Source: an uncultured virus (IMG/VR IMGVR_UViG_2061766007_000877)
Lineage: Duplodnaviria > Heunggongvirae > Uroviricota > Caudoviricetes
Direction: 5' to 3' (one strand)
DNA: 21,914 nt
Virus record (IMG/VR): IMGVR_UViG_2061766007_000877
Below, piece after piece: positions 492 through 21,147 of the stretch (positions are counted from its first letter, which is position 1; every line of letters begins with the position of its first letter). Under the pieces are notes generated by a model. The model worked only from the letters and a program-made list of their open reading frames with translations. It ran no database searches and had not been told where the DNA came from. The translations under genes were made by a program, and so were the position numbers.

Positions 492-753
492 TATATTATC
501 AATAATGTCGTTATTAGAGTCAGCTGTATCAGGCAACCTATTAAACAACCAACCTGTTGATGGTCAGTTGTTTGCACTTTATTTGAATCTTAATAAAGTA
601 ATTGCTGAGTATCTTGACAATTCAGAGCCATCTAATGACGTTGGAAAGGCTGCTCTTGAAAAGCTGCATGAATATATAAAGAATAAGCAAAGTATCTTAG
701 ATAGGAAATGTGCACTTGATGTAACAGGTGAATATGAAGGAGTAAGTAGATAA
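472..753 (+). CDS. Hypothetical helical protein, 93 aa
   Basis: GGAG RBS upstream; stop overlaps the next start (TAATG). Confidence 0.7.
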   Translation: METNISDILSIMSLLESAVSGNLLNNQPVDGQLFALYLNLNKVIAEYLDNSEPSNDVGKAALEKLHEYIKNKQSILDRKCALDVTGEYEGVSR

Positions 754-1870
754 TGTTATTCGTAAATGAAAAGTATACACCTATTCACAAAATTATGAAT
801 GAAGCCACAATGAAAGGCGGTGGTGCAAATAGTGACTACACAAAGTACGGTTACAAATATGCACTTGCTGTTATTGACAAACTACTTAGTGGTGGCGAAG
901 TTCGTTTAGGTGGTAAAGGTGATAGTGGCAGTGTATCTGGTAAANNNNNNNNNNNNNNNNNNNNNNNNNNNNNAAATGCACTTAAAAAGAACATTGATGG
1001 TTCAACAGTGGAAGACTTCAATGACGCTGTAAAAGACCTTAACCTTAAATGGACAAACATATTCAAAGGCGATGTTACAGGTTATTCAGATGGCTTAGCA
1101 TCAAAGAATAAAGGTAACGCATTTGAACAAGAATTTGTTGCTGACTTTGAAAAGTATGAGCCTGAAATCAAAAAGATGGTTGACTACAACGAAATCGTTG
1201 ATGTTAAACCTGATGGTGGTCTAAATCAAAAGCGACCTCTTACATTTGGCTCAGGTTCAATCACATGTGGTCCTGCAGGTGATTACAACATTGGCCACAC
1301 TGTTACAGACATTACACTTACTACTGATGAAGGTGAAAAGATTTACCTGTCATTAAAATATGGTAACACAGTTACATTCGTCAATGCAGGTATTAAGAAA
1401 CTATTCACAAAAGAATTCTTTGATGNNNNNNNNNNNNNNNNNNNNNAACCCTTCTTGATATGTTCTGCATTGATGAAGACAGATTCAGAGACGTGTTTGC
1501 AAATTACAAAGGTAAGGGTGATGGCAAACGACAGAAAGCTAACAAGCAGGTCGAAGATATCACAAGTAAATTGAAAGCTAACAAAGTATTTAAGAACTTC
1601 GTTAAATCCGTTATCGGATATGGATTTATCATGGTTCATAAAACTAGTAAAGGCGATGTAGAATTTATCAACTTCTTAGATGAAAGTGACCTTAACAAGT
1701 TCGTTTCAAAGATTGATTCTGCAACGATTCTATATCCTACTGGCGGAACTGAAAAACGTGTTGACATTGTAGTCAGATACAAGAGCATTGAAATCAAGTT
1801 CAATATTCGTAGTAAAGATGGTGGTGTATTGCCAACACACATCATGGCTGATTACAAATTTCTAAAGTAA
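753..1870 (+). CDS. PD-(D/E)xK restriction-endonuclease-like protein with MLFVNEKY leader (ORFs 753-1574 and 1460-1870 joined across the N block at 1426-1446)
   Basis: Motifs KGNAFE...VTDITL...YLSLK (E-D-SxK variant); C-terminus KFNIRSKDGGVLPTHIMADY; the frame change coincides with the N block; AAGGAG RBS. Confidence 0.7.
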
Positions 1871-1933: not shown

Positions 1934-3248
1934 TTATAGGATTGACATTACAATCCAGAACTTGCCGCCGTCTGACTTAAAAGCGGCCTTTACTTTATAA
2001 CCTTTGCACTCGTCACTCTTAACATACTTTACAATGTCATTGTATAATTTGCAGTTACCAGTCTCATTCCAAACTAATACAGCATTAGCACAAGAATTGC
2101 TCTTTTCACCAAATTTGCCTTTACCTGATAAAGCTTCAACGATTAGCTGATCTCTAACCTCTGCATCAGATGTTACATAGTCAAGTATTGTTTCACCGAA
2201 TGCTTTCTTTATTAAAGACATTCTAGCAAGCTCTTGTATATCGCTATCTTCATTGTCTAGCAAAGTATCTGCTATATCTTCTACATCTTTTCCTAACAAG
2301 CTTTTTACTTTTTNNNNNNNNNNNNNNGCTATCAAAGTTGCTTCTTGTTTTTGCAGACTTCTTGTTAAGCTCTAAAATTCTATTTGAAAATTCGTTTATA
2401 AAATTAGAGTCTTTTTTAGCATTTTCTATAGCTGTAGTTATAATAGCAAGAGAGTCACATACAGAACTGGATGCAAGTCGGGCTCTATCTTTGTCTGAAT
2501 CGACTTTTTTCATTGAGNNNNNNNNNNNNNNNNNNNNNNNNNNNNTCATTATTAACAGTGCCACCGAAATCTTTGTAGTGACCTTTATCTTCCCATGTTG
2601 GATCTGCATTATCTTTACCGGTATATCTTACTAGATCTGTTTTAATACCAGCATCTGTTAGTGACGTATATATTTTCTTAAAAAATTCATTCTTATCATC
2701 ATCTGTTCGTTTACCGTTTGCTTCCATGTCACCACTAAACTCGTAAGACGACCAGTCCCAGTCTTTAGGTAATTTTCCTTCATTCTTTCTTAATAAATTA
2801 AATGCGTCGCACACTATATACTCAACTTTCTCACCCCAGCTTCTACCGCGACTTTTTGATTTACTACCTTGTACGCCTTTAACTTCATTTGACTTATATA
2901 TAAACGACCAACCATTTGTTTCATTTAAACCGTTATTTTTATTTGCATTAGCATTGATTATCTTTTTAGCTTTATCAGTTAGCCATTCATTAAAAAATAA
3001 CTTATTGAAATTTTCAACATTACTTGGTNNNNNNNNNNNNNNNNNNNNNNNNNNNNNNNNNNNNNNNNNNNNNNNNNNTCGGACTTTGATGATTTAGGTG
3101 CAGGCTGTACTTCAATCTGACCAGTCGTTTTCATAATGTTCATAACTGATGACACATACTTATTGAAGTTGGCATTCGTAAGTAAATTTTCATTTACTAT
3201 ATGAGTTAATTTATCTAAAGACTCATAGCATTTGCTAATAAATAACAT
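1934..3248 (-). CDS. PD-(D/E)xK-like nuclease with MLFISKCY...IVNE leader (one gene of roughly 430 aa split by three N blocks)
   Basis: Manual translation: MLFISKCYESLDKLTHIVNE...[N]PSNVENFNKLF...WSFIYK...WGEKVEYIVCDAFN...FGGTVNN[N]SMKK...[N]...EALSGKGKFGEKSNSCA...MSIL*. Motif I Glu and SxK are visible; the expected Asp lies in the masked block. Confidence 0.6.
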
Positions 3249-3265
3249 ATATACCTCTAATAAAA

Positions 3266-4147
3266 TTATTCTGATAAGAATTTCTTAAACTGCTCTAAAT
3301 CTTTTGCATCTTGATTTGCTTTTGTNNNNNNNNNNNNNNNNNNNNNNNNNNNNNNNNNNNNNNNNNNNNNNNNNNNNNNNNNCTTTTGATTTTTATCAGA
3401 CAAGTAGATCTTTGTGTCTTCAATGTCAAAGTATGGATTTTCAATTTCACCATTTACTTTGATGATTGATTGTTTATCATCAAACCTTACCGAAGATACC
3501 TTGCATTGCTTTTTGAGTCCTGCGATTACATCGTCTCGTTGGCTTAACGGTAAATCCTTTGAGCCATTTGAATAGTATCTTGCAAAGGCTGTTATGTCAA
3601 AGTATTTGAGCAGATTATCTGCAGTATTCTTAAATATAGAATACTCATTATTTAATGCAGTAATGAAAAATTCTACACCCTTCTTAGTGTAATAATCACT
3701 TATCCACTCTGCAAACACACTTGCATCTAAATCAAACATAATCTTACTAGAGTGTGGCTCCGTCAACTTCACAAAGTTATCGAAGTTATCATTTATATAA
3801 GACATGATTTTTGATGCAGCATCATTCTGATCTGCAGTTTCTGAACATTCAAAGAATCTTTTATCGCCATCTTCAACAAGCTTTATTCCAAATCCTGTTG
3901 ACTGCGCACCAACTTTCTTTTTACCATTCTCTGTCATTTTACATTCAATATAGAACTTATCGTCTACAAGAATGTCTGACACGGTTTTATTATTCCCACC
4001 TTTAACAGTGAACTTATGATCTGGAAATTGCTTTCGAAGATATCTCGCACATTTAGACTCGAACCTATCAGAGTCTTTTGTCTCATTAACTATGTTCTTA
4101 GTAAGAATCCTATTTAGTGATTCATACTTTTCATTTACAAATAGCAT
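3266..4147 (-). CDS. PD-(D/E)xK restriction-endonuclease-like protein with MLFVNEKY...IVNE leader
   Basis: Canonical motif RFE...VSDILVDDKFYIECK; 293 aa ORF; AGGT RBS. Confidence 0.75.
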   Translation of the reverse strand: MLFVNEKYESLNRILTKNIVNETKDSDRFESKCARYLRKQFPDHKFTVKGGNNKTVSDILVDDKFYIECKMTENGKKKVGAQSTGFGIKLVEDGDKRFFECSETADQNDAASKIMSYINDNFDNFVKLTEPHSSKIMFDLDASVFAEWISDYYTKKGVEFFITALNNEYSIFKNTADNLLKYFDITAFARYYSNGSKDLPLSQRDDVIAGLKKQCKVSSVRFDDKQSIIKVNGEIENPYFDIEDTKIYLSDKNQKXXXXXXXXXXXXXXXXXXXTKANQDAKDLEQFKKFLSE

Positions 4148-5200: not shown

Positions 5201-5578
5201 TATAAACTCCTACAATAAGATGAACCAATCAACGAATTGTAGTTATTATATACACAGAATTGAGTTACTGTTTAATTTTACACAGTAAATGCAGGAAAAT
5301 AATGGCAGACACAGTTTGATACAGACTATATTTAATCTTAATGAAACACAGACTGATTCTGTATCAGAATGTAACAACTTATAATAAATAATGAGATATT
5401 CATTTCTAATGCAGCTTTATGTATATCTATAATCTGATTAGATATTATTTACCTATAACGAGGGTACAAAATGATATTTGCAATAATACTAATCTGTACA
5501 ATACTTGGTGGAATGATAGGCTATACAACTGCGTTGTATTTGCATAACGATAATAAATAATTTGAAAGGCTATACACA

Positions 5579-6037
5579 ATGAAAAGACTAACATTAGAAG
5601 AAAGAATTGATCGTCTTGAGAGACTGTTTAATAAGAACGAATCTTCTGAAGATGATAGTTGGCGTTATATAGAACCTAAGGATAAAATTATTAAAGATTG
5701 GTTTGAGCGAGTTAACCGTCTTATAAGAAAGAATTGGGAAGTAACATCACAAACTGACAATGAAAAGTTATCAGAGACAATTTTAGAAAAAGATGATCAA
5801 ATAATTGTGTATCGTGTTGTTGACTACGCAATACCTTCAACAGGTGAGCGTGAGCTTCACTGTATTTATACATATGACGACAATAGTCCTTATGAGTCAT
5901 ACGAAAGTGAATCAGAAGTTGATGTTTGGAAACAAGACGGCAGAGATCCTAACAAATTTTATCTTAACGATGCTGGAATGACTTATAGTGAATATAAAAG
6001 ATCCTTTAGAAAAGGCAAACCTTTTATCAGTAAATAG
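5579..6037 (+). CDS. Hypothetical protein beginning with the LEERIDRLERL motif
   Basis: 152 aa ORF, GAAAGG upstream; N-terminus MKRLTLEERIDRLERLFNKNE. Confidence 0.8.
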   Translation: MKRLTLEERIDRLERLFNKNESSEDDSWRYIEPKDKIIKDWFERVNRLIRKNWEVTSQTDNEKLSETILEKDDQIIVYRVVDYAIPSTGERELHCIYTYDDNSPYESYESESEVDVWKQDGRDPNKFYLNDAGMTYSEYKRSFRKGKPFISK

Positions 6038-6059
6038 TAATTAGCAATGGCATTGCATT

Positions 6060-7462
6060 ATGAAAGAAATACAAGGACTTGAAAATTATTCATATGACGA
6101 AATCGTTGATCTTATCAACGATTTTATCATTGATAAGATTTGGGATAACTGGCATTCGGCTGATGATATTAAACTTAATGATATAAGATTACACGGATCA
6201 AGATTACGAAATCAAGCTAAATCAACATCTGATTTAGATGCTGTTGTTGAATATGATGGTGATATTCGTGAAGATGATTTCTTTAATATACTAAATGATG
6301 ACCCGTTATATATTGATGACGTTAGAGTTGACATAAATCCAATTAAAGAGGATTTAGATTTATATATGAAAAGGTCAGCTGATTATGATAGACATAAATT
6401 AAGTCTCGAATACCGATTAAGAAAATTAGAACAGCTGATATGTGAAGGTAAGAAAGACCAAGAGGTACTTCGTGGTTTTCTTGGTGACGATTATTACGAC
6501 AGGTTCCAACTAATAAAAGACAAAATTAAAGACCCTGACTACAAGGACGTATATAAAATAATCAAACAAGATCCTGATGATATTAAAAGCTATATAGACA
6601 ATTTCAAATCACAAAGAGATTTACGTTCTGCAGCAAAAGGTTCAGGTGCAAAATTAATCTACAGAGATGATGATTGGAGTGTATATAGAATAACAACTTA
6701 TGATGCAGCTGCATTATATGGAAAGAATACAAAGTGGTGTATCACTGGAAGATATCCTGGGTCAGAGTCAGAAGGTGAAAGATACTTCAATGATTACATA
6801 AATGACTATAATCTTGATGGCGGTTATTACTTTTATATAAATAGACACGATCCTGCTGTTAAGTATTGTGTATTGCAAGATGATAACAATAATATCCACT
6901 CGATATGGGATGCCGCTGACAACGATCTTGGCGATAAATTTGCATCTGTTTACATAAGACAAAATGTAATGCTGCCACCTATTGATGAAATACCCGCATC
7001 TGAAANNNNNNNNNNNNNNNNNNNNNNNNNNNNNNNNNNNNNNNNNNNTTAATAAAAGATGGCATAGATCCTATGATTATAATTGAAGATGGCGTGCCTG
7101 CACTTATGTATGCCTGTGTTTATGGGGCTGACACATCTGTTGCTGAAACTCTATTACGATGCGGTGCCGATCCAAATGATGGAGGTGTTAAATCACCACC
7201 ACTTATATTTTTAACAAGATTTGGCGATTTAGCAGGTGTTAAGGTGTTATTAGAATTTGGAGCTAATCCTAATTTAACAGACCATAGAAATCATACTGCA
7301 CTGTATTACGCAGTAAAATTTGATTTTTATGAATGTGCAGCTTCACTTGTTGAATACGGTGCTGATGCTAGTATATCTGTGGATGGTGAGACAGTTTATG
7401 ATATTGCAGCGAACGATCCTAATGCAGGTTCTCTATTCAATGCAATAAATTCAGAAGGATAA
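6060..7462 (+). CDS. Multidomain protein: pol-beta-superfamily nucleotidyltransferase + LE.R.LE linker + TKWCI domain + ankyrin repeats (ORFs 6060-7052 and 7073-7462 joined across the N block)
   Basis: hGS...DLD...D motif (LHGSRLRNQAKSTSDLDAVVEY...VDINPI); YGKNTKWCIT; ankyrin-like LLRCGADPN, LLEFGANPNLTD...TALYYA, LVEYGADAS; the frame is open upstream of 7073 (LIKDGIDP). Confidence 0.72.
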
Positions 7463-7467
7463 TCATA

Positions 7468-7756
7468 ATGACTATAAAGAATAAACTAANNNNNNNNNNN
7501 NNNNNNNNNNNNNNNNNNNNNNNTTAGAAAGAATTGTTAGTGAACGCCGTAAAATGACCAATGAGGCCATTCCTGATGCACTTGCTAAAGTTGCACCAAT
7601 TCTTTCAAAGAATCTTCCTGCATTTTTAGAAGTATTACCTAAAGAGATACCTTTAATGATTAAAGCTCTTGAAAGTGATACCATNNNNNNNNNNNNNNNN
7701 NNNNNNNNNNNNNNNNNNNNNNNNNNNNTAAGAAACTTAGTGAGATGTTCAAGTAA
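7468..7756 (+). CDS. Small hypothetical protein with a LERIVSE-type leader
   Basis: ATG 7468 after AAGGA: MTIKNKL[N]LERIVSERRKMTNEAIPDALAK...[N]KKLSEMFK*. The end could alternatively be 7766. Confidence 0.6.
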
Positions 7757-7776
7757 CCTGCAATAATTATTCAAAT

Positions 7777-7822
7777 AATAAAACCCACTATGTATATAAA
7801 TCTGTACATAGTGGGTTTTATT
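7777..7822 (+). terminator. Hairpin terminator of the AAACCC...GGGTTT family
   Basis: 18-bp perfect arms aataaaacccactatgta / tacatagtgggttttatt with a 10-nt loop. Confidence 0.75.
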
Positions 7823-7846
7823 TATCTTTGAAGATTTGAGGTTTTT

Positions 7847-8306
7847 ATGAGTCTTAAAAGCTTGTATAAGATATATAATAANNNNNNNNNNNNNNNNNNN
7901 AGACTGTGATATTACAGGATATCGTATCAAAAGTATAGACGAATTTGAAAAATGCAATGGTGGCGTTTGTTGGGATTTCATGGCACCTATATCAGATGAA
8001 ATAAATAAGATCCCATACATACATCATTGTTATTTCACTGAAGTACAGAAGGGAGGTAAAATGATTGCCTCCCATACATACATCATTGTTCGTGATACAC
8101 CTTTTCATTATTGGATTGAATGTGCTTGGCAAAAGAACAAAGGTGTTCATTTTATATTTTCATATAAAGATATAGAGCGATTATTAAAAGAAGAATACAA
8201 TGCAGATGAAGTTCATACCATTGTGTACGATCCTAGTGCAGTAGAAGGTTATACAGCTAATGAATTTTTCGAGTATCTTAATAAAGAAGGAGCTGAACTG
8301 TCATAA
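7847..8306 (+). CDS. Transglutaminase/papain-like fold protein (putative Cys-His-Glu triad)
   Basis: True start at ATG 7847 after GAGG. Extending ORF 7980 upstream gives NGGVCWDF, followed by SHTY and YWIECAW. Confidence 0.55.
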
Positions 8307-8653
8307 TGGGATGTATTTCAAACTTTCTTGATGATACAATAGAAGCTATTCATTCAGCACGTTACAGAATGGTGCCGTACACTGAAGACGATGTAACATC
8401 TGTAAGTGTAGGCGGTGATGTCATTACGTGGGAATGCTTTAAGAATTCAGCAAAAGACTTGTATTGGGATCCTACATGTGGAACATGTTATATACGTGAT
8501 GATATTCTTATATGCTTGCCACACCATATACTATATTTAGAAGAATATGATGATTACCTTAGATGGTTATCCGTTGGCAAGGTTAGTGAAGAACCTGATG
8601 AGTCAATCACATATATAAAATTACGACCAAATAATTATGAAGAGGATTTGTAA
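8306..8653 (+). CDS. Hypothetical protein, paralogue of 12421-12783
   Basis: Shares SNFLD.T, TE.D..SV.VG.D..TWECFK.S.KD..WD and RP..Y.E with 12421; TAATG coupling. Confidence 0.8.
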   Translation: MGCISNFLDDTIEAIHSARYRMVPYTEDDVTSVSVGGDVITWECFKNSAKDLYWDPTCGTCYIRDDILICLPHHILYLEEYDDYLRWLSVGKVSEEPDESITYIKLRPNNYEEDL

Positions 8654-8988
8654 TGAAAGTAAAAGATGTTATTGATGCTGTTACAAATAAACCATTCTAT
8701 TCATTATATGATGTAGACGAATACTTTATTGACAATTACGGTGAATGTCTACATGAAGTATATAACACGGACAAGTCAATAGAGTACTTACAGGATGTAG
8801 ANNNNNNNNNNNNNNNNNNNNNNNNNNNTGTTGCTGCAACAATTTTATATAAGTGTGACGACGGTGTTGTTGGAGTGCATGGTGTTTACTGGATTCCATT
8901 TGATGGTATTCAGTATGAAGATATAGGGGAGCTGTGTACAGCACAGGAATACATACTAGAGAACAAACAGATATACGTTCCTAAATAA
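8653..8988 (+). CDS. Hypothetical phage protein
   Basis: 111 aa ORF, GAGGA RBS, TAATG coupling. Confidence 0.75.
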   Translation: MKVKDVIDAVTNKPFYSLYDVDEYFIDNYGECLHEVYNTDKSIEYLQDVXXXXXXXXXXVAATILYKCDDGVVGVHGVYWIPFDGIQYEDIGELCTAQEYILENKQIYVPK

Positions 8989-8990
8989 TT

Positions 8991-9012
8991 AAAGCCCTCA
9001 TAAGAGGGCTTT
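8991..9012. terminator. Bidirectional intrinsic terminator
   Basis: aaagccctc-ataa-gagggcttt followed by a T-rich tail, between convergent genes. Confidence 0.75.
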
Positions 9013-9016
9013 TGTT

Positions 9017-9934
9017 TTATTGGTAGTACTCTGGAATGTAGTCAGGATCATTTTTCTTATCTTTAATAATTCCTCTGATACATTTTAGTCTCCATTCAAG
9101 ATCAAGTTTATCATGTCTCCAAAGTGGGCCAAGAACTGTACGACGACCTCTTAAAGCTTTTCTACACATATCAAGGTCTTTTACTGTTTTAGCTTCTAAT
9201 GATTGCAGTTGGTCTATATCATAATGCCATACAGTATGTAAGAACTCATCATCCTCGCCCATTGCAAGAACACCCGTGTCCCAAGGACTCATTGGGCTAC
9301 CTTCACTAACCAATCTTTCTAATCGTGTAATTCTTTCTTCAAGAGTTTGTCGCATTCTTCTCCTCCTAGAATATCTTTCTACCTTACCATACACTTTATA
9401 GATTTGTCTCTTAAGTGTTTCATATAGAATATCACTATCACTTGCAGATCCTGGAGGAATCATTGACAGGCAACCATCTTTATCATCATTAAGTAAACAA
9501 TTACGCACCTTTGTTGCACTAACATCTTTCTCAGGATCTCGTTGTACTTCAATTACTTCGAAGTCATCAGTTAATCCAGCACGATCATGATATCTTGCAG
9601 CTTTAACTGAATATTCAGGATATCTGTCTGTCCCACATGTCCATGCTGCGATTTGGTAATTGTGGTCGCGTAAAATTTCACCTGCCTTAACAATGTCTGC
9701 ACTAGGAACAGTAACAACCTCTGCTATATAAGGATCATTTGTGAAAAGATTGTTATAAAGACTAATAAGCATATCACTTGGGAAAGGATGTCTCTCATCT
9801 ACTTTAAACTCTGGCACATTGATCATGCACACTACTGTCCTCAACCCTTTCTTACGCATTGCAGCTACTGCACAAGAATAGTGACCAGTTGTGAATGGCT
9901 GAAAACGACCGATAACTATATTTACCTTCTCCAT
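9017..9934 (-). CDS. Cytidylyltransferase-like (HIGH-superfamily) nucleotidyltransferase with an extra C-terminal module
   Basis: GRFQPFTTGH (H/TxGH motif), CGTDR, VSATKVR; then TLEERITRLERLVSE and about 95 further residues. Confidence 0.8.
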   Translation of the reverse strand: MEKVNIVIGRFQPFTTGHYSCAVAAMRKKGLRTVVCMINVPEFKVDERHPFPSDMLISLYNNLFTNDPYIAEVVTVPSADIVKAGEILRDHNYQIAAWTCGTDRYPEYSVKAARYHDRAGLTDDFEVIEVQRDPEKDVSATKVRNCLLNDDKDGCLSMIPPGSASDSDILYETLKRQIYKVYGKVERYSRRRRMRQTLEERITRLERLVSEGSPMSPWDTGVLAMGEDDEFLHTVWHYDIDQLQSLEAKTVKDLDMCRKALRGRRTVLGPLWRHDKLDLEWRLKCIRGIIKDKKNDPDYIPEYYQ

Positions 9935-11230: not shown

Positions 11231-11401
11231 ATGCAGGAAACACAAATAGAAATATTGAAACGTAATGTTAAGACAGGTGAATATGTTGTTGTAGGCTATG
11301 AAGATAGTTATTCTCGTGAACTATGTAATAGACTGCACGACTTATCTGAACAAGACAGCAATTACAGATATGAAATAAGAGTGGTTGGTAAACAGTTATG
11401 A
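11231..11401 (+). CDS. Small hypothetical protein, 56 aa (absent from the ORF track)
   Basis: GAGGTG RBS; MQETQIEILKRNVKTGEYVVVG...VVGKQL*; ATGA overlap with the next gene. Confidence 0.7.
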   Translation: MQETQIEILKRNVKTGEYVVVGYEDSYSRELCNRLHDLSEQDSNYRYEIRVVGKQL

Positions 11402-11595
11402 AAGTAAAAGAGTTGATTGAACAATTGCAAAAACTAAATCCTGAGCATGATGTAAAAGTTGTTGCTTACAATGAAAACGCACGCTGCGATAAAAAATGCA
11501 ATGTCACTGAAGCACATGAGTCAGCTTATTACAGAAATATAAATGACAATGACTTATACCATTATGTCGTAATAAATTATAGTTTTAAGGACTAA
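11398..11595 (+). CDS. Small MKVKELIE-family protein
   Basis: MKVKELIEQLQKLNPEHDVKV. Confidence 0.75.
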   Translation: MKVKELIEQLQKLNPEHDVKVVAYNENARCDKKCNVTEAHESAYYRNINDNDLYHYVVINYSFKD

Positions 11596-11596
11596 C

Positions 11597-11986
11597 ATGA
11601 ATCCTAAATGGTTGTATCGTCTAGAGGCAAAAGACCCTAACAACGGTTTGTGGTATAACACAAATGCTGAATTGGTTTGGGGCATAGGCAAAATAAAAGA
11701 TTGCGAAACAAAGTATTTACCTATGGATTATGATGAGCGTTATCATAAAGATGGTAAGATTTGGCATTCATCTTGTTCAAACAAAGAAGATCTTTCTCAC
11801 TGGTACTCACTTGAAGATGCAAAAGAACTTATTGCAAATGGATTTGTTTTCACAAGGTATTTAGCAACAGAGTACGTTGAATACGATCTTGAAACAACGT
11901 TTGTTAAAAGCACTTCGTTAAAACGTGAAGAGCTTAACATTGAAGATATTATGGGTGATAGCAATGAAAGTAAAAGAGCTTATTGA
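11597..11986 (+). CDS. Hypothetical phage protein
   Basis: 129 aa ORF, AAGGA RBS. Confidence 0.78.
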   Translation: MNPKWLYRLEAKDPNNGLWYNTNAELVWGIGKIKDCETKYLPMDYDERYHKDGKIWHSSCSNKEDLSHWYSLEDAKELIANGFVFTRYLATEYVEYDLETTFVKSTSLKREELNIEDIMGDSNESKRAY

Positions 11987-12152
11987 GGAATTAAAAGGAT
12001 TTGATGGTGAACTTGAAGTAGTTACATGGTCAGATTATGATGAATGTGGTAATGGCACTATTGATGAAGTTAGACTACATAACGTGTTTGATGGAAATGA
12101 AACAGGAAACGATAGCGTAATGATTCGTTTTGAGTGGGATGGGGATATTTAG
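11964..12152 (+). CDS. Small MKVKELIE-family protein
   Basis: Start reassigned to 11964 (GGGTG RBS): MKVKELIEELKGFDGELEVV. Confidence 0.75.
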   Translation: MKVKELIEELKGFDGELEVVTWSDYDECGNGTIDEVRLHNVFDGNETGNDSVMIRFEWDGDI

Positions 12153-12420: not shown

Positions 12421-12783
12421 ATGAGCGGATATGTTTCAAACTTTCTTGACTATACTGTTGATTATCTAAACAGGTGGAAAATAAATGGTAAGCAAGTAAC
12501 AGAGAATGATATTATTTCTGTTCAAGTAGGAAGTGATATAGTAACTTGGGAATGTTTCAAAGAATCAATAAAAGATATTCTGTGGGACACAGATGATAAT
12601 GATAATCTAATCATTGGTGATATTCAAATTTATGGTAAGAACTTTATCATGTATCTTGAACATGATAGTGAATATGAGAGCTACTCTTGGGATTCTTTAT
12701 TCATACCAGATAGTTTAGAGCCAAACAAAGAAATTAAACATGTGAATGTTCGTCCAGAAGATTACATAGAAGACGAGGATTAG
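12421..12783 (+). CDS. Hypothetical protein, paralogue of 8306-8653
   Basis: Start 12421 after GGAG: MSGYVSNFLDYT...TWECFKESIKDILWD. Confidence 0.8.
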   Translation: MSGYVSNFLDYTVDYLNRWKINGKQVTENDIISVQVGSDIVTWECFKESIKDILWDTDDNDNLIIGDIQIYGKNFIMYLEHDSEYESYSWDSLFIPDSLEPNKEIKHVNVRPEDYIEDED

Positions 12784-13134: not shown

Positions 13135-13649
13135 ATNNNNNNNNNNNNNNNNNNNNNNNNNNNNNNTATATGAAAGCGGATCTGTCTTATTTAGTACATT
13201 TATCAAAAAGTGCATCAGACCATAAATACTTTGTCGGCGTGTTCACTGGTCGCTTCAAAGATGTACTATACTTTAGAGACGCATTTGACAATGAAATAGA
13301 ATTGCATATCAAAGATTACTTGTTTAACGATGGCTCATTTCATATTGACTTCATTCCTATAAAAGATGTAAATAATTGGGCATACGATGAGCCTGATGGT
13401 TCTAAAAGTGAGCTGGTTAAATACAAGGGTGTTATAAAGTCTATTGAAAAAGAAAAAGACTTGGTTACATGTACAGCTTTAATAAACCAAGAAAAGAAAT
13501 TTGAAATAGATACAGATGATCTTAATGAGTTTGGAAAAGAACATTTACTAGACACACTAATGTCAGGTAATGCTGTACAAATCGAAGTAACAGAACATAA
13601 AGACAAATTATTGCCTACACTTGTAGCGTGGTATGAAAAGGATGACTAA
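13135..13649 (+). CDS. Hypothetical beta-rich protein
   Basis: TAAGGAG then AT[N] at 13135 suggests the start is partly masked; ORF 13170-13649. Confidence 0.68.
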
Positions 13650-13653
13650 GGTA

Positions 13654-13836
13654 ATGAAAGTAGCAGAACTAATTGAAAAGTTAAAGTCATTTGATGATAA
13701 TCTTGATGTTTTTCTTGATACATATACGCCTGATGGTTTACCTGAAACATCATTGGGTATTTATGATGTAAGACTTGAAAAATATGATAAAGTGAATAAA
13801 CAATATATAAGTATTCTTTATGATTATCCAATGTAG
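13654..13836 (+). CDS. Small MKVKELIE-family protein
   Basis: AAGGT RBS; MKVAELIEKLKSFDDNLDVFL. Confidence 0.72.
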   Translation: MKVAELIEKLKSFDDNLDVFLDTYTPDGLPETSLGIYDVRLEKYDKVNKQYISILYDYPM

Positions 13837-15417: not shown

Positions 15418-16207
15418 ATGGACATACATGATAAATTTATCAGGTACATGTGTGGAGAAACTAATAATGATGTATCATATTCAGCAAGTACTGACAACGA
15501 CAAATACGTTGACAGTTTGAAATATAGAAATGAGATTGAAGCATTTGCAAGATTGAAAGGTACATCTATTCCTGACTTGTACAACACTGAAATAAATGAA
15601 AAAGTAACGGCTGCATTAGGTGAAGTATATCCTGATAACTTTGATGCTGATCTATCAATAGAAAATCCTGGTGGAAGATTCAATGAGCTGCTAAGCAAAA
15701 TTGAATCAGACACAGATTTAGTGATGAAAATTGATAACCCTACTTTTGACGATGTAATAAAACAAAACAGCCATCTTTCATGGGACGCATATTTTATGAA
15801 CATCGCAATTTTAACATCTCTTCGTAGTAAAGATGAAAATACAAAAGTAGGTTGTATCATTGTTGATTCAAAGAATAGAATCGTTGGTACAGGATATAAT
15901 GGATTACCTTCACATATTGATGAGTCACAGTTCCCAACAGGCAGAGATGGTGAACTTCATAATACTAAATATGCCTACGTCATACATGCGGAAGCTAACG
16001 CGTTATGCAATTCACCGGTATATGATTTAACAGGATCAAGAATTTATTGTACTCTATTCCCATGCTGTCATTGTGCTGCATTGTTATTGCAAAAAGGAAT
16101 CTCTGAAATAGTTTACCTTTCTGACAANNNNNNNNNNNNNNAGTAGAAAATTATTTAATGCAGCAGGCGTCACTGTAAGGCAATACAATGACACAATTCT
16201 TTTATAG
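15418..16207 (+). CDS. dCMP deaminase with an N-terminal extension of about 115 aa
   Basis: WDAYFM, RSKD..TKVGC, TGYNG, HAEANA, TLFPCCHCA zinc motifs; after the N block SRKLFNAAGVTVRQY...* ends at TAG 16207. Confidence 0.92.
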
Positions 16208-17659
16208 ACGACTTATCAATTTTGAAGTTACACTATTGAGATCATCTGCAAAATTAATGTATAATCTATCAAGTTTTGTCTTTCTATGATTTGTTGCAAG
16301 TTCTTTATACATTTCAGTATATGAGTTATTATCATTACCAAATAGTTGGCGTGGTGTTAAATCCCATCCTACATTCAACTGTGAAACAGTAAGATGAATA
16401 ATTGAACTGTTTGAAATTGCATTATCACTTAATTCGACATCCGGGGTTTCCATATTGACATATATCTTGTAAGATGCCTGTTGCTTTTTAGAATAGCAAT
16501 TAAATTCAAAACTTACATCAAACATATCATCTGATGTATATTTTGAACAGGCATCTTTTATTTCCGCTGCTATATNNNNNNNNNNNNNNNGTGATGCGAT
16601 ATTCTTAACAACTTTATCCTGTAATTTTTCAATAAGTTTCAAAGTAGTTCTTATGAAATAATTTCTAAATTTCAATGGAGACATTTTTTCAAATCGTTCT
16701 GCAGCGCTGGATTCTTTTGAACCTTCAACAACTATTGATTTTACTATATCCCAAAAATTAGAATCATAGTCAGTGTCACTCAATTCATTTAGAGAATCAT
16801 ACACATTTGAAATAAATTCATCAAATGTGATATTGCCACCATCTGAACAAGCGCGTGAAAGATACTGTAATGACACTTTATTTATATACTTTGATTTTAC
16901 AATGCTGCGCTGAACATCAACATCACGACCGAATGTTTGTGTAAACGCATTGAACTCTGTTCTACTCCATAACGAATATAAAATGTTAAGTGCTAATTCA
17001 AGCCCATACTTATCAGCATTGTCGATGTTTAATCCTGTAAAATGATTGACTCTTGCAGCATTAGGTTGATCCATTACATGTGTGAGTTCATGCAAAATTG
17101 TCTTGATTGCAAATACGGCATCTATATTCAAAGTCTTTTTAACTGATGTATTTGAATCCGATATATCAGCCATAATTTCATCGACGACATAACGATACTT
17201 CTGTTTCAGTTTGTTAGTTTCTTTACTTATTGAATTATAATTGTTTGTATGTAACCATCCATCTAATTGGTGTAGTTCATCAGTATAGTCATCACAGATA
17301 TTGTTAAATCTGCTGTTTAACGATTTGCTAACAAAAGGTGATGTTTTGAATGACACAGGGATATAGGCATATACTTTATCGTATGCAGTAACACCATCTA
17401 CATCATCAGGCCCAATAAAATTATCATCACTTATTTTACTGTTCGGGTTTCCACTTTCCCTATCATAATAGAACAGAGTAATTACGCACTGCAAATCTCT
17501 ATCGGATATCTCACGGGTTGTCATAAATACTTTGTACTTGTGCAAGAACAAACTGACTATCGGTGAAATTTTATTGAGTTCATTTATCTCGTCTAAAATA
17601 GCATCCCTAATCTTTCCTTCGTATTCTTGCAATGAATATTTTTCGTATATGTATTTCAT
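16202..17659 (-). CDS. HExxH zinc metallopeptidase-like protein with MKYIYEKY...LQE leader
   Basis: ILHELTHVMD plus downstream TEFNA (candidate third ligand); 485 aa; GGAG RBS. Confidence 0.68.
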   Translation of the reverse strand: MKYIYEKYSLQEYEGKIRDAILDEINELNKISPIVSLFLHKYKVFMTTREISDRDLQCVITLFYYDRESGNPNSKISDDNFIGPDDVDGVTAYDKVYAYIPVSFKTSPFVSKSLNSRFNNICDDYTDELHQLDGWLHTNNYNSISKETNKLKQKYRYVVDEIMADISDSNTSVKKTLNIDAVFAIKTILHELTHVMDQPNAARVNHFTGLNIDNADKYGLELALNILYSLWSRTEFNAFTQTFGRDVDVQRSIVKSKYINKVSLQYLSRACSDGGNITFDEFISNVYDSLNELSDTDYDSNFWDIVKSIVVEGSKESSAAERFEKMSPLKFRNYFIRTTLKLIEKLQDKVVKNIASXXXXXXIAAEIKDACSKYTSDDMFDVSFEFNCYSKKQQASYKIYVNMETPDVELSDNAISNSSIIHLTVSQLNVGWDLTPRQLFGNDNNSYTEMYKELATNHRKTKLDRLYINFADDLNSVTSKLISRL

Positions 17660-19266: not shown

Positions 19267-20506
19267 TTATAAGTGCAAGTATTCAAATCCTGATGGAACA
19301 TTTCCATATAGCAAATGTCTACCGTCAAAAATAATTTTATTCCTCATGGATTCACCTAACATTTCATAATTCAAATCTCTATAACAATCCCATTCAGTTG
19401 CAATGATTATAGCATCTACATCCTTCACACATTCTTGTATATCAGAGCATTTAACAATTCCTTCCTTACTATTTAGATTATTCAATGCGATTGGATCATG
19501 CACTTTCAATTTGCATTTTTTCTCTAACAATTTATGGCACAGATTCAAACTTACACTGTCTCTAATATCATCGGTACCAGGTTTGAACGCGATTCCAAAA
19601 ATAGCAAATTCCTTATCTTTCAAATCGCCAAATTTATTCTCTAAAATTTCAACCACTCTATTCAGACACATTTCATTTACGGATATACAGCTATTAAGAA
19701 TTGACATACTGCATCCAACTTTATTACCTTCATACAATAATGAATGACAATCCTTAGGGAAACATGAACCTCCCCATCCCAACCCACTATTTAGAAATTT
19801 GTTCCCTATTCGATTATCTGATCCAACACCTTCTGCAACTTTTATTATATCAGCTCCAATTTTACTGCNNNNNNNNNNNNNNAATCTTTAATGCTAAAAA
19901 TGAATTGGACGCATACTTAATCATTTCTGCAGTGTTGTAATTTGTAGTAATAACTTTCACACCCTTAAAATAATTACTCCATAGATTATTAAACACACTC
20001 AAAATATAATCCTTATCAGAATCAGTACATCCAATTACAATTCTATCTGGATTCATTAGATCATAAATTTCATTCCCTTCCCTTAAGAACTCTGGATTAA
20101 ATGCAAAATGTAATTTGTTACTACAGACTCTGTCTGTAATATACGATTCAAATTTCAAAGTAGTTCCACATGGTATTGTTGATTTTAGTATTATTAGTAA
20201 GTCATTACTCACATTCCATTTATTCACACACTCAACAATATCATTCGCAACTTCAAACAGATAATGTAAATTTGTAGATCCATCATCGTTACTTGGTGTC
20301 CCTACTGTTATATAGATTACACTTGCATTCTTAAATGTATTTTCATTAACACATGTTTCAAATGTTAAATGGTTACTACTATACTGTCTGTTTAACAATT
20401 CAACTTTATTTACGTCAACGTCTATACCTGTTACATAATGGCTGTTACTTAATACTCTACATAATGATAAACCAACATATCCTGTTCCATAGATTATAAT
20501 ATTCAT
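19267..20506 (-). CDS. ugd: UDP-glucose 6-dehydrogenase (ORFs 19862-20578 and 19267-19782 joined across the N block)
   Basis: GTGYVG, VGTP, KSTIP, NPEFLREG, EMIKYASNSFLALKI, GWGGSCFPKD, AFKPGTDDIRDS, ATEW, FDGRH; start ATG 20506 after GAGGG. Confidence 0.92.
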
Positions 20507-20511
20507 ACTAA

Positions 20512-21147
20512 ACCCTCTATATCGTCCAGAAGTCCTTGTGAGGCTTCTTATTAAAAGCTTATAAATGTACCGTCCCATAACAAGCTATACTTGTAGATGG
20601 TCATCTAACGATTACTATAGCCATGTATTTTGATCTGTCATCTGTGTAATTTCCAACTTGATTGTAATGGTTTCCTTAAGTGATTTTGGTCTGTATCTAA
20701 GCTCAGATTAGGCTATAAGAAAATTTGTAAGCGTGTTGTGAAAATATTTTAATGACCCACTGCTTATCATCATCTTGTTGCCTCTTGCTTTCATCTTAAG
20801 ACCTAACTCTTACCGCTTACTAATCATCAAAGAAAATAAAATCCACACGAACTTAATCTGTGTGGCTTGTACTGTGGGAGGTNNNNNNNNNNNNNNNNNN
20901 NNNNNNNNNNGATCTAAATTACTTATTGCAAAGTACAAAAAAGCAGACCGTCGGAGATTCCCTTCAGTCGCAACGAAGAAAGATTTGTAGCTTAATCAAC
21001 AATTCAAATTAAATTACTACCGAATGAATCTCTGGCCTTATTCTTCTGGTCGGGTTCGTGTCCAATCATTCATTTCTTTAATCTTATTTAACGCTCATGG
21101 TCACGGGTCGCACCATAGAGAGCATTTAATTAGAGAAGTAGTTGGAA
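20512..21147 (-). ncRNA. Candidate large structured ncRNA (about 600 nt), family unassigned
   Basis: ORF-poor region with many mutually nested 6-8 bp inverted repeats; G-U wobbles favour the minus strand; boundaries approximate. Confidence 0.4.

Follow-up and report, generated by a model that had tools for sequence, protein, structure and literature searches.

In the 21,914-nt stretch of DNA analysed here (hereafter the window; IMG/VR record IMGVR_UViG_2061766007_000877, from an uncultured Caudoviricetes virus), several proteins carry the same short peptide, LE-x-R-(I/L)-x-(R/K)-LE-x-L, either close to their N-terminus or between two domains. From sequence comparisons we favour, with moderate confidence, the view that this motif forms the core of a capsid-targeting propeptide, specific to one clade and made up of a docking helix and a prohead-protease site, and that it is a functional analogue of the capsid-targeting sequence (CTS) of phage T4. 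We propose this because the motif is mainly N-terminal, restricted to one clade and present on 19 unrelated protein bodies, because the Glu at the end of the leader matches the site found in the major capsid protein, and because related phages encode a gp21-type protease. According to this proposal, the helix would dock the carrier protein to the prohead during assembly, at its scaffold or core, and the gp21-type (Peptidase S77) prohead protease would then cut after the Glu, as in the major capsid protein, so that the mature protein would be free in the head and would enter the next host together with the ejected DNA. As for the internal copies, they would be the leaders of downstream modules, turned into linkers by in-frame fusion of neighbouring genes; if such an internal site were still cut, one translation product would give two packaged proteins.

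A helical leader and the glutamate at its end

The leader begins with the Met and 3-8 residues that are often basic. Then comes an 11-residue amphipathic helix, LE-x-R-(I/L/V)-x-(R/K)-LE-x-(L/I/M/F), followed by a spacer of 0-9 residues and by a Glu, usually in the form (K)NE and otherwise h-(S/C/A)-E. When the helix is read as a heptad, positions a and d are hydrophobic, e is Glu and g is Arg, an arrangement in which parallel pairing of two such helices seems possible.

In the window we observed three full copies of the motif and one half-masked copy (Table 1). One of the four is clearly N-terminal, another is probably N-terminal, its start being masked, and two are located at fusion joints. 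When the core pattern was back-translated, it gave 3 matches in the window, which are the three full copies and nothing else; in 100 dinucleotide-preserving shuffles the mean was 0.00 and the maximum 0 matches. The earlier note made on this DNA had described the motif both as an N-terminal leader and as an internal segment, and all four sites are indeed present. The Leu, Arg and Glu codons of the motif differ between the copies at synonymous sites; therefore, conservation acts on the peptide. The four leader ends in the window fit the general pattern, with FNKNE↓SS, ICE↓GK, VSERRKMTNE↓AI and VSE↓GS (the arrow marks the boundary after the Glu).

Table 1. Motif copies and the genes that carry them. 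Positions refer to the window, except in the last row, which concerns related phages.
Feature	Position	Strand	Remarks
Motif core, N-terminal	5594-5626	+	In ORF 5579-6037; leader MKRLTLEERIDRLERLFNKNE
Internal motif SLEYRLRKLEQLICE↓GKKDQE	6402-6446	+	In the ORF starting at 6060
Internal motif TLEERITRLERLVSE↓GSPMSP	9346-9302	-	In ORF 9934-9017
Leader end LERIVSE	7524-7544	+	Start hidden by masked run 7490-7523
152-aa protein, N-terminal leader	5579..6037	+	Leader 5579-5641 (MKRLTLEERIDRLERLFNKNE), ends KNE before SSEDD
Fused three-part gene (ankyrin part probably included)	6060..7462	+	Nucleotidyltransferase (NTase) ~6060-6389; motif 6402-6446 (ICE↓GK); WC domain 6447-7004; ankyrin 7073-7462
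Small protein, masked start	7488..7766	+	LERIVSE 7524-7544; RRKMTNE 7545-7565; then AIPDA
305-aa fusion	9017..9934	-	Cytidylyltransferase-like, 9934 to ~9370; motif 9346-9302 (VSE↓GS); small C-terminal domain 9301-9017
Two conserved head-module proteins, 309-316 aa and acidic 143-153 aa	L105 8903-9853, 7180-7641	-	Orthologues in L106 and L107; invariant KNE or NE↓S

Genome-wide counts, which the earlier note had suggested as a check, were made on the contigs of three related IMG/VR phages, G001 (103 kb), G002 (204 kb, 95% complete) and G003 (156 kb). The scan confirmed the recurrence of the motif, with 10, 8 and 8 matches to the core pattern, respectively (26 copies). The reversed pattern gave 0 matches in five contigs. 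The core pattern itself gave 0 matches in two other contigs that bear the WC domain (described below), and 0 in 482 kb of the three cultured phages whose capsid proteins come closest. With a profile built from 23 leaders we detected 14, 13 and 13 copies in G001, G002 and G003, and none in either G005 (252 kb, from a sister clade) or Listeria phage LIS04 (182 kb). When the back-translated pattern strictly required Ile, IMG/VR gave 0 matching stretches, the relatives carrying I, L or V at that position. The exact form M(D/N)KK-LE-x-RI-x-(R/K)-LE is present in all IMG/VR in only 15 copies on 10 contigs; the tag thus belongs to one small clade.

Most of the 26 copies (21) start 4-8 residues after the Met and 2 others are tandem second copies; the remaining ones are internal in one case, the orthologue of the window's fusion, and at extreme C-termini in two. 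Once the leaders were removed, the 26 carrier bodies fell into 19 BLASTP families, in agreement with the earlier statement that the carriers are unrelated. Ankyrin repeats and DUF6273 were the only Pfam families among them, and many carriers are proteins of 80-110 aa. The leaders are more conserved than the bodies: in L100 and L080 the first 13 residues are the same and the bodies are 54.5% identical.

One locus of G001 has a particular arrangement (L091, G001:18199-18339). There, an ORF ends in the helix (LESRIKRLEKLILRK, stop) and is directly followed by a 25-31-aa ORF that starts with the leader, the profile match spanning the TAA; perhaps the gene is broken or was split recently.

We then considered the residues that follow the helix. 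NE was present within 12 residues of the helix in 20 of the 25 leaders, as compared with 3.8% of 3,777 control windows drawn from the leader-bearing proteins themselves, and KNE in 14 of the 25, as compared with 0.5% of the same 3,777 windows. All of the 15 M(D/N)KK-type leaders found in IMG/VR (10 contigs) have KNE next. Within families, the length of the spacer varies and the KNE is kept: a single orthologous family has ISRKNE↓A, VSRKSVKNE↓A, MNRKSAKNE↓A and FKRKNE↓S, and the family of ORF 5579 has FNKNE↓S, LNRSAKNE↓S and IKNE↓D. In addition, the VSE↓G of the window reads VNE↓G in one orthologue. It had been proposed in the earlier note that the motif is a helical tag ending in a protease site of the LxxE type. 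A helical tag with a site at its end agrees with our sequence tests; the fixed LxxE end does not, since most leaders have a spacer of variable length and then (K)NE. The VSE and ICE forms are a minority, and tags at the C-terminus also occur.

Two of the carriers in the window are small proteins with the leader at, or probably at, their N-terminus. The 152-aa protein (ORF 5579-6037), for which no Pfam or PHROG family was found, has orthologues (P0005-P0007) in which the leader is kept and insertions or deletions occur immediately after it. For the gene carrying LERIVSE, the start had been placed at the ATG at 7468, but this codon is out of frame, and because an in-frame TAA is present at 7482-7484 the real start of the protein must lie inside the masked run. 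Its orthologue in G001 is a 94-aa protein starting with MRRNYKSTLEERLSRLERIVSERRTPKNE↓ALPA, with 54% identity in the body.

Head genes of related phages and known targeting systems

A Peptidase_S77 domain, typical of the T4 gp21 protease, was detected in 3/3 of the contigs G001-G003 (44-54 bits, for a Pfam cut-off of 27) and in 0/14 control genomes. The corresponding gene is located directly upstream of the one encoding a Gp23-type major capsid protein (E 1.7e-36; PHROG names), and the genes for the tail sheath and tube are found downstream. In 3/3 of these phages, the capsid protein begins with a 54-residue stretch that ends (V/M)KNE54↓S55, E54 being the only Glu between residues 18 and 72. 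Mature T4 gp23* (PDB chains) comprises 456 of the 521 residues of the precursor; its first residue aligns about 9 residues before KNE54↓S55, in a region (the N-terminus) where the alignment is weak.

The tripeptide is rare in this part of the genome. In the structural region of G001 (19 kb, 18 ORFs), only 4 occurrences of KNE were counted: one belongs to the capsid protein, another to a 316-aa protein whose gene comes next, a third to an acidic protein of 153 aa, and the last to the leader of a 91-aa protein. All three phages keep this site unchanged in the 316-aa and 153-aa proteins, and each of these two proteins has at its C-terminus a copy of the helix with a basic tail behind it (LERRLSRLESLYINRKLKRLY, LEDRLAALERRFTESRRRKACRRLRY). 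No Pfam or PHROG family was found for these two head-module proteins (309-316 aa and 143-153 aa, depending on the phage), and a search of the protein atlas with the 153-aa protein returned 'hypothetical protein' clusters only. Judging from their sequences, we regard these two helix-ended proteins as candidate core or scaffold docking partners of the leader.

A different leader is found in a sister clade (G004 and G005). The WC proteins of these two contigs start with MVKL(R/K)RV(N/Y/C)E, a pattern that gave 7 and 4 matches, respectively, and 0 matches in G001-G003. In G004, the matches are seven tandem WC paralogues. In G005, this leader is carried by one WC protein and by three non-WC proteins, which read MVKLRRVNE↓A, MVKLKRVNE↓N and MVKLKRVCE↓R, and the capsid protein of the same contig has GISNE↓N at the homologous place. 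Different clade-specific leaders on one protein family, each of them common to unrelated proteins, are what is expected of a targeting signal fitted to the head.

A second shared N-terminus, MLF(V/I)(N/S)(E/K)(K/C)Y..., was also observed in the window, in ORFs 753-1574 (+), 3266-4147 (-) and 2979-3248 (-). In these sequences (I/V)(M/V)NE is reached after no more than about 20 residues (KIMNE↓A, NIVNE↓T and HIVNE↓N), an end of the same kind as that of the LE-x-R leader, and a WC protein from the databases (P0041) starts MLFINDTLMNE↓S. This N-terminus is probably the 'first motif' of the earlier note.

We compared the leader with the known systems, as they are described in the cited articles. 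In T4, gp21 cuts after the Glu of L/I-X-E, and a 10-residue CTS directs the internal proteins to the core and is then removed; the internal proteins of T-even phages are a diverse set, of which the CTS is the sole common feature (PMC9026906, PMC3012670). Propeptides in T4 are 10-20 residues long (PMC5694885). Like the CTS of IPI-III and Alt, which is processed by gp21, the leader is a short N-terminal peptide on otherwise unrelated proteins, with a Glu in a protease motif, and the clade has, as T4 does, a gp21-type protease and a gp23-type capsid protein with a propeptide ending in the same kind of site (PMC9026906, PMC3012670). The differences are nevertheless clear. The leader is about 20-30 residues long instead of 10, its heptad-patterned helix is set apart from the cut site by a variable spacer, and the site is mostly (K)NE, whereas that of T4 is L/I-X-E. 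There are about 13 copies per genome, to which tandem doubles, C-terminal copies and the use as an internal linker must be added, and the system described here is known from sequence alone. We know of no resemblance between the T4 CTS sequence itself and the leader.

In giant phages, the gp21 homologues cut after the Glu of S/A-X-E or A-X-E (PMC5694885). As in the clade studied here, cleavage in phiKZ, 201phi2-1 and SPN3US is specific for Glu with few other determinants (PMC5694885, PMC9026906). In SPN3US, the paralogues gp53 and gp54 have identical first 15 residues, and the propeptides of giant phages have been proposed to act like a CTS (PMC5694885, PMC9026906). However, as far as these sources describe them, these propeptides are mostly longer than 100 residues and end in S/A-X-E or A-X-E, whereas here a short common helix is found on many unrelated bodies. 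Four motif strings of the leader had no occurrence in the literature searched.

Internal copies, gene fusions and the WC domain

By comparison with related proteins, the two internal copies of the window are clearly gene-fusion joints. In ORF 9934-9017, the upstream part matches CTP_transf_like in Pfam (residues 6-145). The domain downstream of the motif exists as a stand-alone protein of 105-114 aa in P0001-P0004, three of which begin M(D/N)KKLEAR(I/V)ARLERLV(S/N)E↓GS and the fourth MKDLSNYILE↓AT. In P0158 and P0159, this small domain is joined via the motif to a different upstream domain, with a Met still present before the motif. That upstream domain shows 73% identity (125 residues) to the N-terminal part of another protein, in which the motif and then a WC domain follow; the similarity stops at E↓G, where two different downstream domains have been joined. 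The cytidylyltransferase is also found as a stand-alone protein, in G001 and G002 (205-206 aa, 54-57% identity), and the last residues of these orthologues form a variant of the motif, LQ(Y/F)R(V/I)AKLERLLNI(N)K, which suggests that the cytidylyltransferase itself is tagged, at the opposite end of the protein. In both stand-alone genes (L139 1501-2118 in G002 and L140 1501-2121 in G001), the sequence VYVDE precedes the C-terminal helix LQ(Y/F)R(V/I)AKLERLL.

The DNA at the joint of the 305-aa protein keeps the trace of a gene start. An in-frame AGGAGG (9367-9362), followed by 6 nt and by an ATG (9355-9353), is present directly before the motif; the peptide 'SRRRRM' in the protein thus results from translation of a ribosome-binding site and start codon. 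The fusion could thereby yield the small protein separately, from the ribosome-binding site and ATG that have been kept.

For the gene starting at 6060, the NTase part matches gp642 of Bacillus phage G, a stand-alone protein of 101 aa; in Pfam, the match to NTP_transf_2 is weak (residues 39-93) and the Ank matches are strong. The gene probably continues through the ankyrin ORF at 7073-7462, as suggested by two other sequences. P0008 (477 aa) is 100% identical to the 6060 product over the 203 residues compared and ends with the ankyrin sequence of the window, and the G001 orthologue is a single ORF of 478 aa, with 65% identity over the whole fused gene. In the window, the link between the NTase-WC part and the ankyrin part is covered by a masked run (7006-7048), and the frames differ across the mask. 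Together with base 7005 this run makes 44 bases, whereas P0008 has 25 residues (75 bases) at this place, so either the mask does not preserve length or the window differs there from P0008. The local order of genes in G001 is the same as in the window: the fused gene, the small leader protein and the convergent cytidylyltransferase.

The earlier note had expected the motif to fall at domain boundaries, and the internal copies do sit where the flanking domains also exist as stand-alone proteins. It had further proposed that the carriers are polyproteins cut into separate effectors, which in our opinion is the weakest part of that interpretation. What can be retained is that the internal copies are fusion joints; on the other hand, the Glu of the WC joint is kept in all clades regardless of the capsid site and is within a continuous AlphaFold2 helix, and the cytidylyltransferase fusion has retained its own translation start signals.

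The WC domain, which has no Pfam model, is recognized by a conserved ...G.GTKWCITGRY... sequence and has 979 cluster representatives at E <= 0.001; a search of IMG/VR with the family alignment gave 223 related stretches. We mapped the junction preceding the domain in 122 of 150 listed representatives. The domain is usually N-terminal, the junction being within the first 40 residues in 92 of the 122 and internal in 30. At the junction, P3 is Leu or Ile in 79/122 and any of L/I/V/Y/F/M in 104/122, and P1' is S, G or A in 110/122, the copy in the window being ICE↓GK. The AlphaFold2 model of the domain is confident (pLDDT 91). In Foldseek it had no match in the PDB at E <= 0.001, and with VIA-align wide the best Z was 5.3, on helical segments only.

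The WC domain is usually followed by ankyrin repeats or by BspA-type leucine-rich repeats (LRR). Relatives reach 1,000-2,600 aa, with the domain repeated up to several times, and ART-PolyVal was found in 4 of the 13 database relatives scanned. Since these giant relatives carry ART-PolyVal and BspA-type LRR or ankyrin repeats, the family is tied to the polyvalent proteins. A layout of the polyvalent type is seen in P0008 and the G001 orthologue (NTase, WC and ankyrin) and in ORF 9934-9017 (cytidylyltransferase and small domain); in the window's own proteins, hallmark polyvalent domains such as ART-PolyVal were not detected. Polyvalent proteins, in the parts of Iyer et al. 2017 (PMC5512222) available to us, likewise bring several unrelated domains of effector type together in a single chain, for which packaging and delivery along with the DNA are proposed. 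In that article, processing is proposed to be due to built-in metallopeptidase domains, whereas the joints described here carry a leader-type helix and a Glu fitting the prohead-protease rule, and the window proteins have only two or three domains. The words 'linker' and 'ankyrin' were not found in the text of PMC5512222.

As regards the rest of the window, it is AT-rich (29-37% G+C), with short ORFs tightly packed on both strands and 24 masked runs (793 N in total). Its recognisable genes have phage-like accessory and nucleotide-sugar functions: dCMP deaminase, nucleotide-sugar epimerase, UDP-glucose dehydrogenase, cytidylyltransferase, ankyrin protein and, with a weak match, nucleotidyltransferase. 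No match was obtained by blastn of positions 5201-7005 against phages or by tblastn of ORF 16202-17659, and the search of IMG/VR for related loci with the 305-aa protein gave no relative. The small ORFs 11398-11595, 11964-12152 and 13633-13836 (+) have a common start, MKVKELIE(Q/E)L(Q/K)..., which in the third reads M..MKVAELIEKLK; from their sequences they are probably a family of paralogous small proteins. ORFs 8306-8653 and 12421-12783 (+) also resemble paralogues, with ...SNFLD.T(I/V)... followed by V(S/Q)VG(G/S)D(V/I)(I/V)TWEC. Finally, the UDP-glucose dehydrogenase (19267-20578, -) is in two pieces, an N-terminal ORF at 19862-20578 and then an ORF at 19267-19782; because a masked run (19869-19882) is located at the boundary, this split may be an artefact of masking.

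Competing readings and biological meaning

Several observations weigh against a capsid-targeting propeptide. The formal (binomial) P values of the NE and KNE enrichment are inflated by paralogy. In 5 of the 25 leaders there is no NE, the end being VSE, ICE (twice, in orthologues) or LAE, with one leader devoid of any nearby Glu, and the C-terminal copies of the helix have no Glu site downstream. At the WC junction, P1 is Glu in 116/122 representatives belonging to many clades, and the tripeptide does not track the capsid-protein site from one clade to another: G005 has TLE↓S for SNE↓N in the capsid protein, and the clade of the window has ICE↓G for KNE↓S. Because the tripeptide does not follow the capsid site, we have not counted this junction as evidence of cleavage, and the sequences suggest that its Glu may be part of the domain itself. 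In the AlphaFold2 model of P0008, a continuous confident helix (93-141) runs across the motif and the proposed scissile Glu, and in that of P0017 a helix (H2-32) joins the leader, the proposed scissile Glu and the first WC helix, with pLDDT above 90 for these helices. By eye, no promoter clearly common to leader genes and head genes could be made out upstream of them. Moreover, there are no head or tail genes within the 21,914 nt of the window, and the protease and the capsid-protein site were seen in relatives at about 54-65% protein identity.

A more elaborate form of the capsid-targeting proposal can be envisaged, which we put forward only tentatively. The helix could be a self-complementary 'zip code', C-terminal and followed by a basic tail in the head-module proteins and N-terminal in the cargo; the two would be zippered as a coiled coil and unzipped by the protease at (K)NE. 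Since a leader gene fused in frame to its upstream neighbour would still have its product released, the tag would then also allow polyproteins of two or three domains to arise rapidly, as a stepping stone to the giant polyvalent proteins, in which each WC module starts at an h-x-E↓(S/A)K joint.

The continuous AlphaFold2 helices also fit another explanation, in which the helix would be a general coiled-coil association tag acting in the infected cell, gathering effectors or binding a common partner, with neither cleavage nor packaging. The heptad pattern read from the sequence, the confident helices continuous with the following domain and the tandem double copies are all consistent with it, as is the position of the tag at either terminus, its C-terminal copies being those of the cytidylyltransferase orthologues and of two further proteins. 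We consider it rather unlikely, since such a tag leaves unexplained the (K)NE conserved after a variable spacer, the identity of the leader end with the site of the capsid protein, the fact that KNE is rare except in head proteins and leaders, and the nearly fixed distance from the start Met.

The fusions themselves raise the question of whether the motif is mainly a recombination joint for the shuffling and fusion of genes, with little function of its own. At the motif, one and the same upstream domain leads into two different downstream domains, the motif of the window's fusion aligns with the C-terminal motif of the stand-alone cytidylyltransferases, and several different fusions have occurred at this place. 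However, the DNA copies have diverged at synonymous sites; this divergence disfavours homologous recombination and points to selection at the level of the peptide, and the leaders are more conserved than the bodies (L100/L080). Thus, we give this explanation a low probability.

It is still less probable, indeed very unlikely, that the leader is another sorting or turnover signal, recognized by a different protease or serving in membrane or secretion targeting or in timed degradation. It is true that the peptide is N-terminal, looks removable and has basic flanks, and that the function of most carriers is unassigned; but it is strongly charged, without the hydrophobic core of a signal peptide, and its end matches the capsid-protein site in phages that encode an S77 protease. 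As for a chance likeness of low-complexity charged helical segments, conceivable in an AT-rich genome with proteins rich in K, N and E, it is refuted by the controls given above (shuffles, reversed pattern, cultured phages, and the profile, with 13-14 matches in each relative but none in two other large phages) and its probability is negligible.

If the leader is indeed a capsid address, it would provide, from sequence only, a list of the proteins that an uncultured phage packs and injects, about 13 per genome in this clade. This list would include ankyrin-repeat proteins, nucleotidyltransferases, an NMNAT-like cytidylyltransferase and many small uncharacterised proteins, and the tagged proteins would be likely first-strike tools against the defences of the host. 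The leader would also be a second loading peptide beside the T4 CTS, differently built, with a docking helix and a cut site that are separable and that could serve for the packaging of foreign proteins into capsids. Finally, the recurring fusions at the tag suggest a route by which multi-domain 'polyvalent' phage proteins arise.

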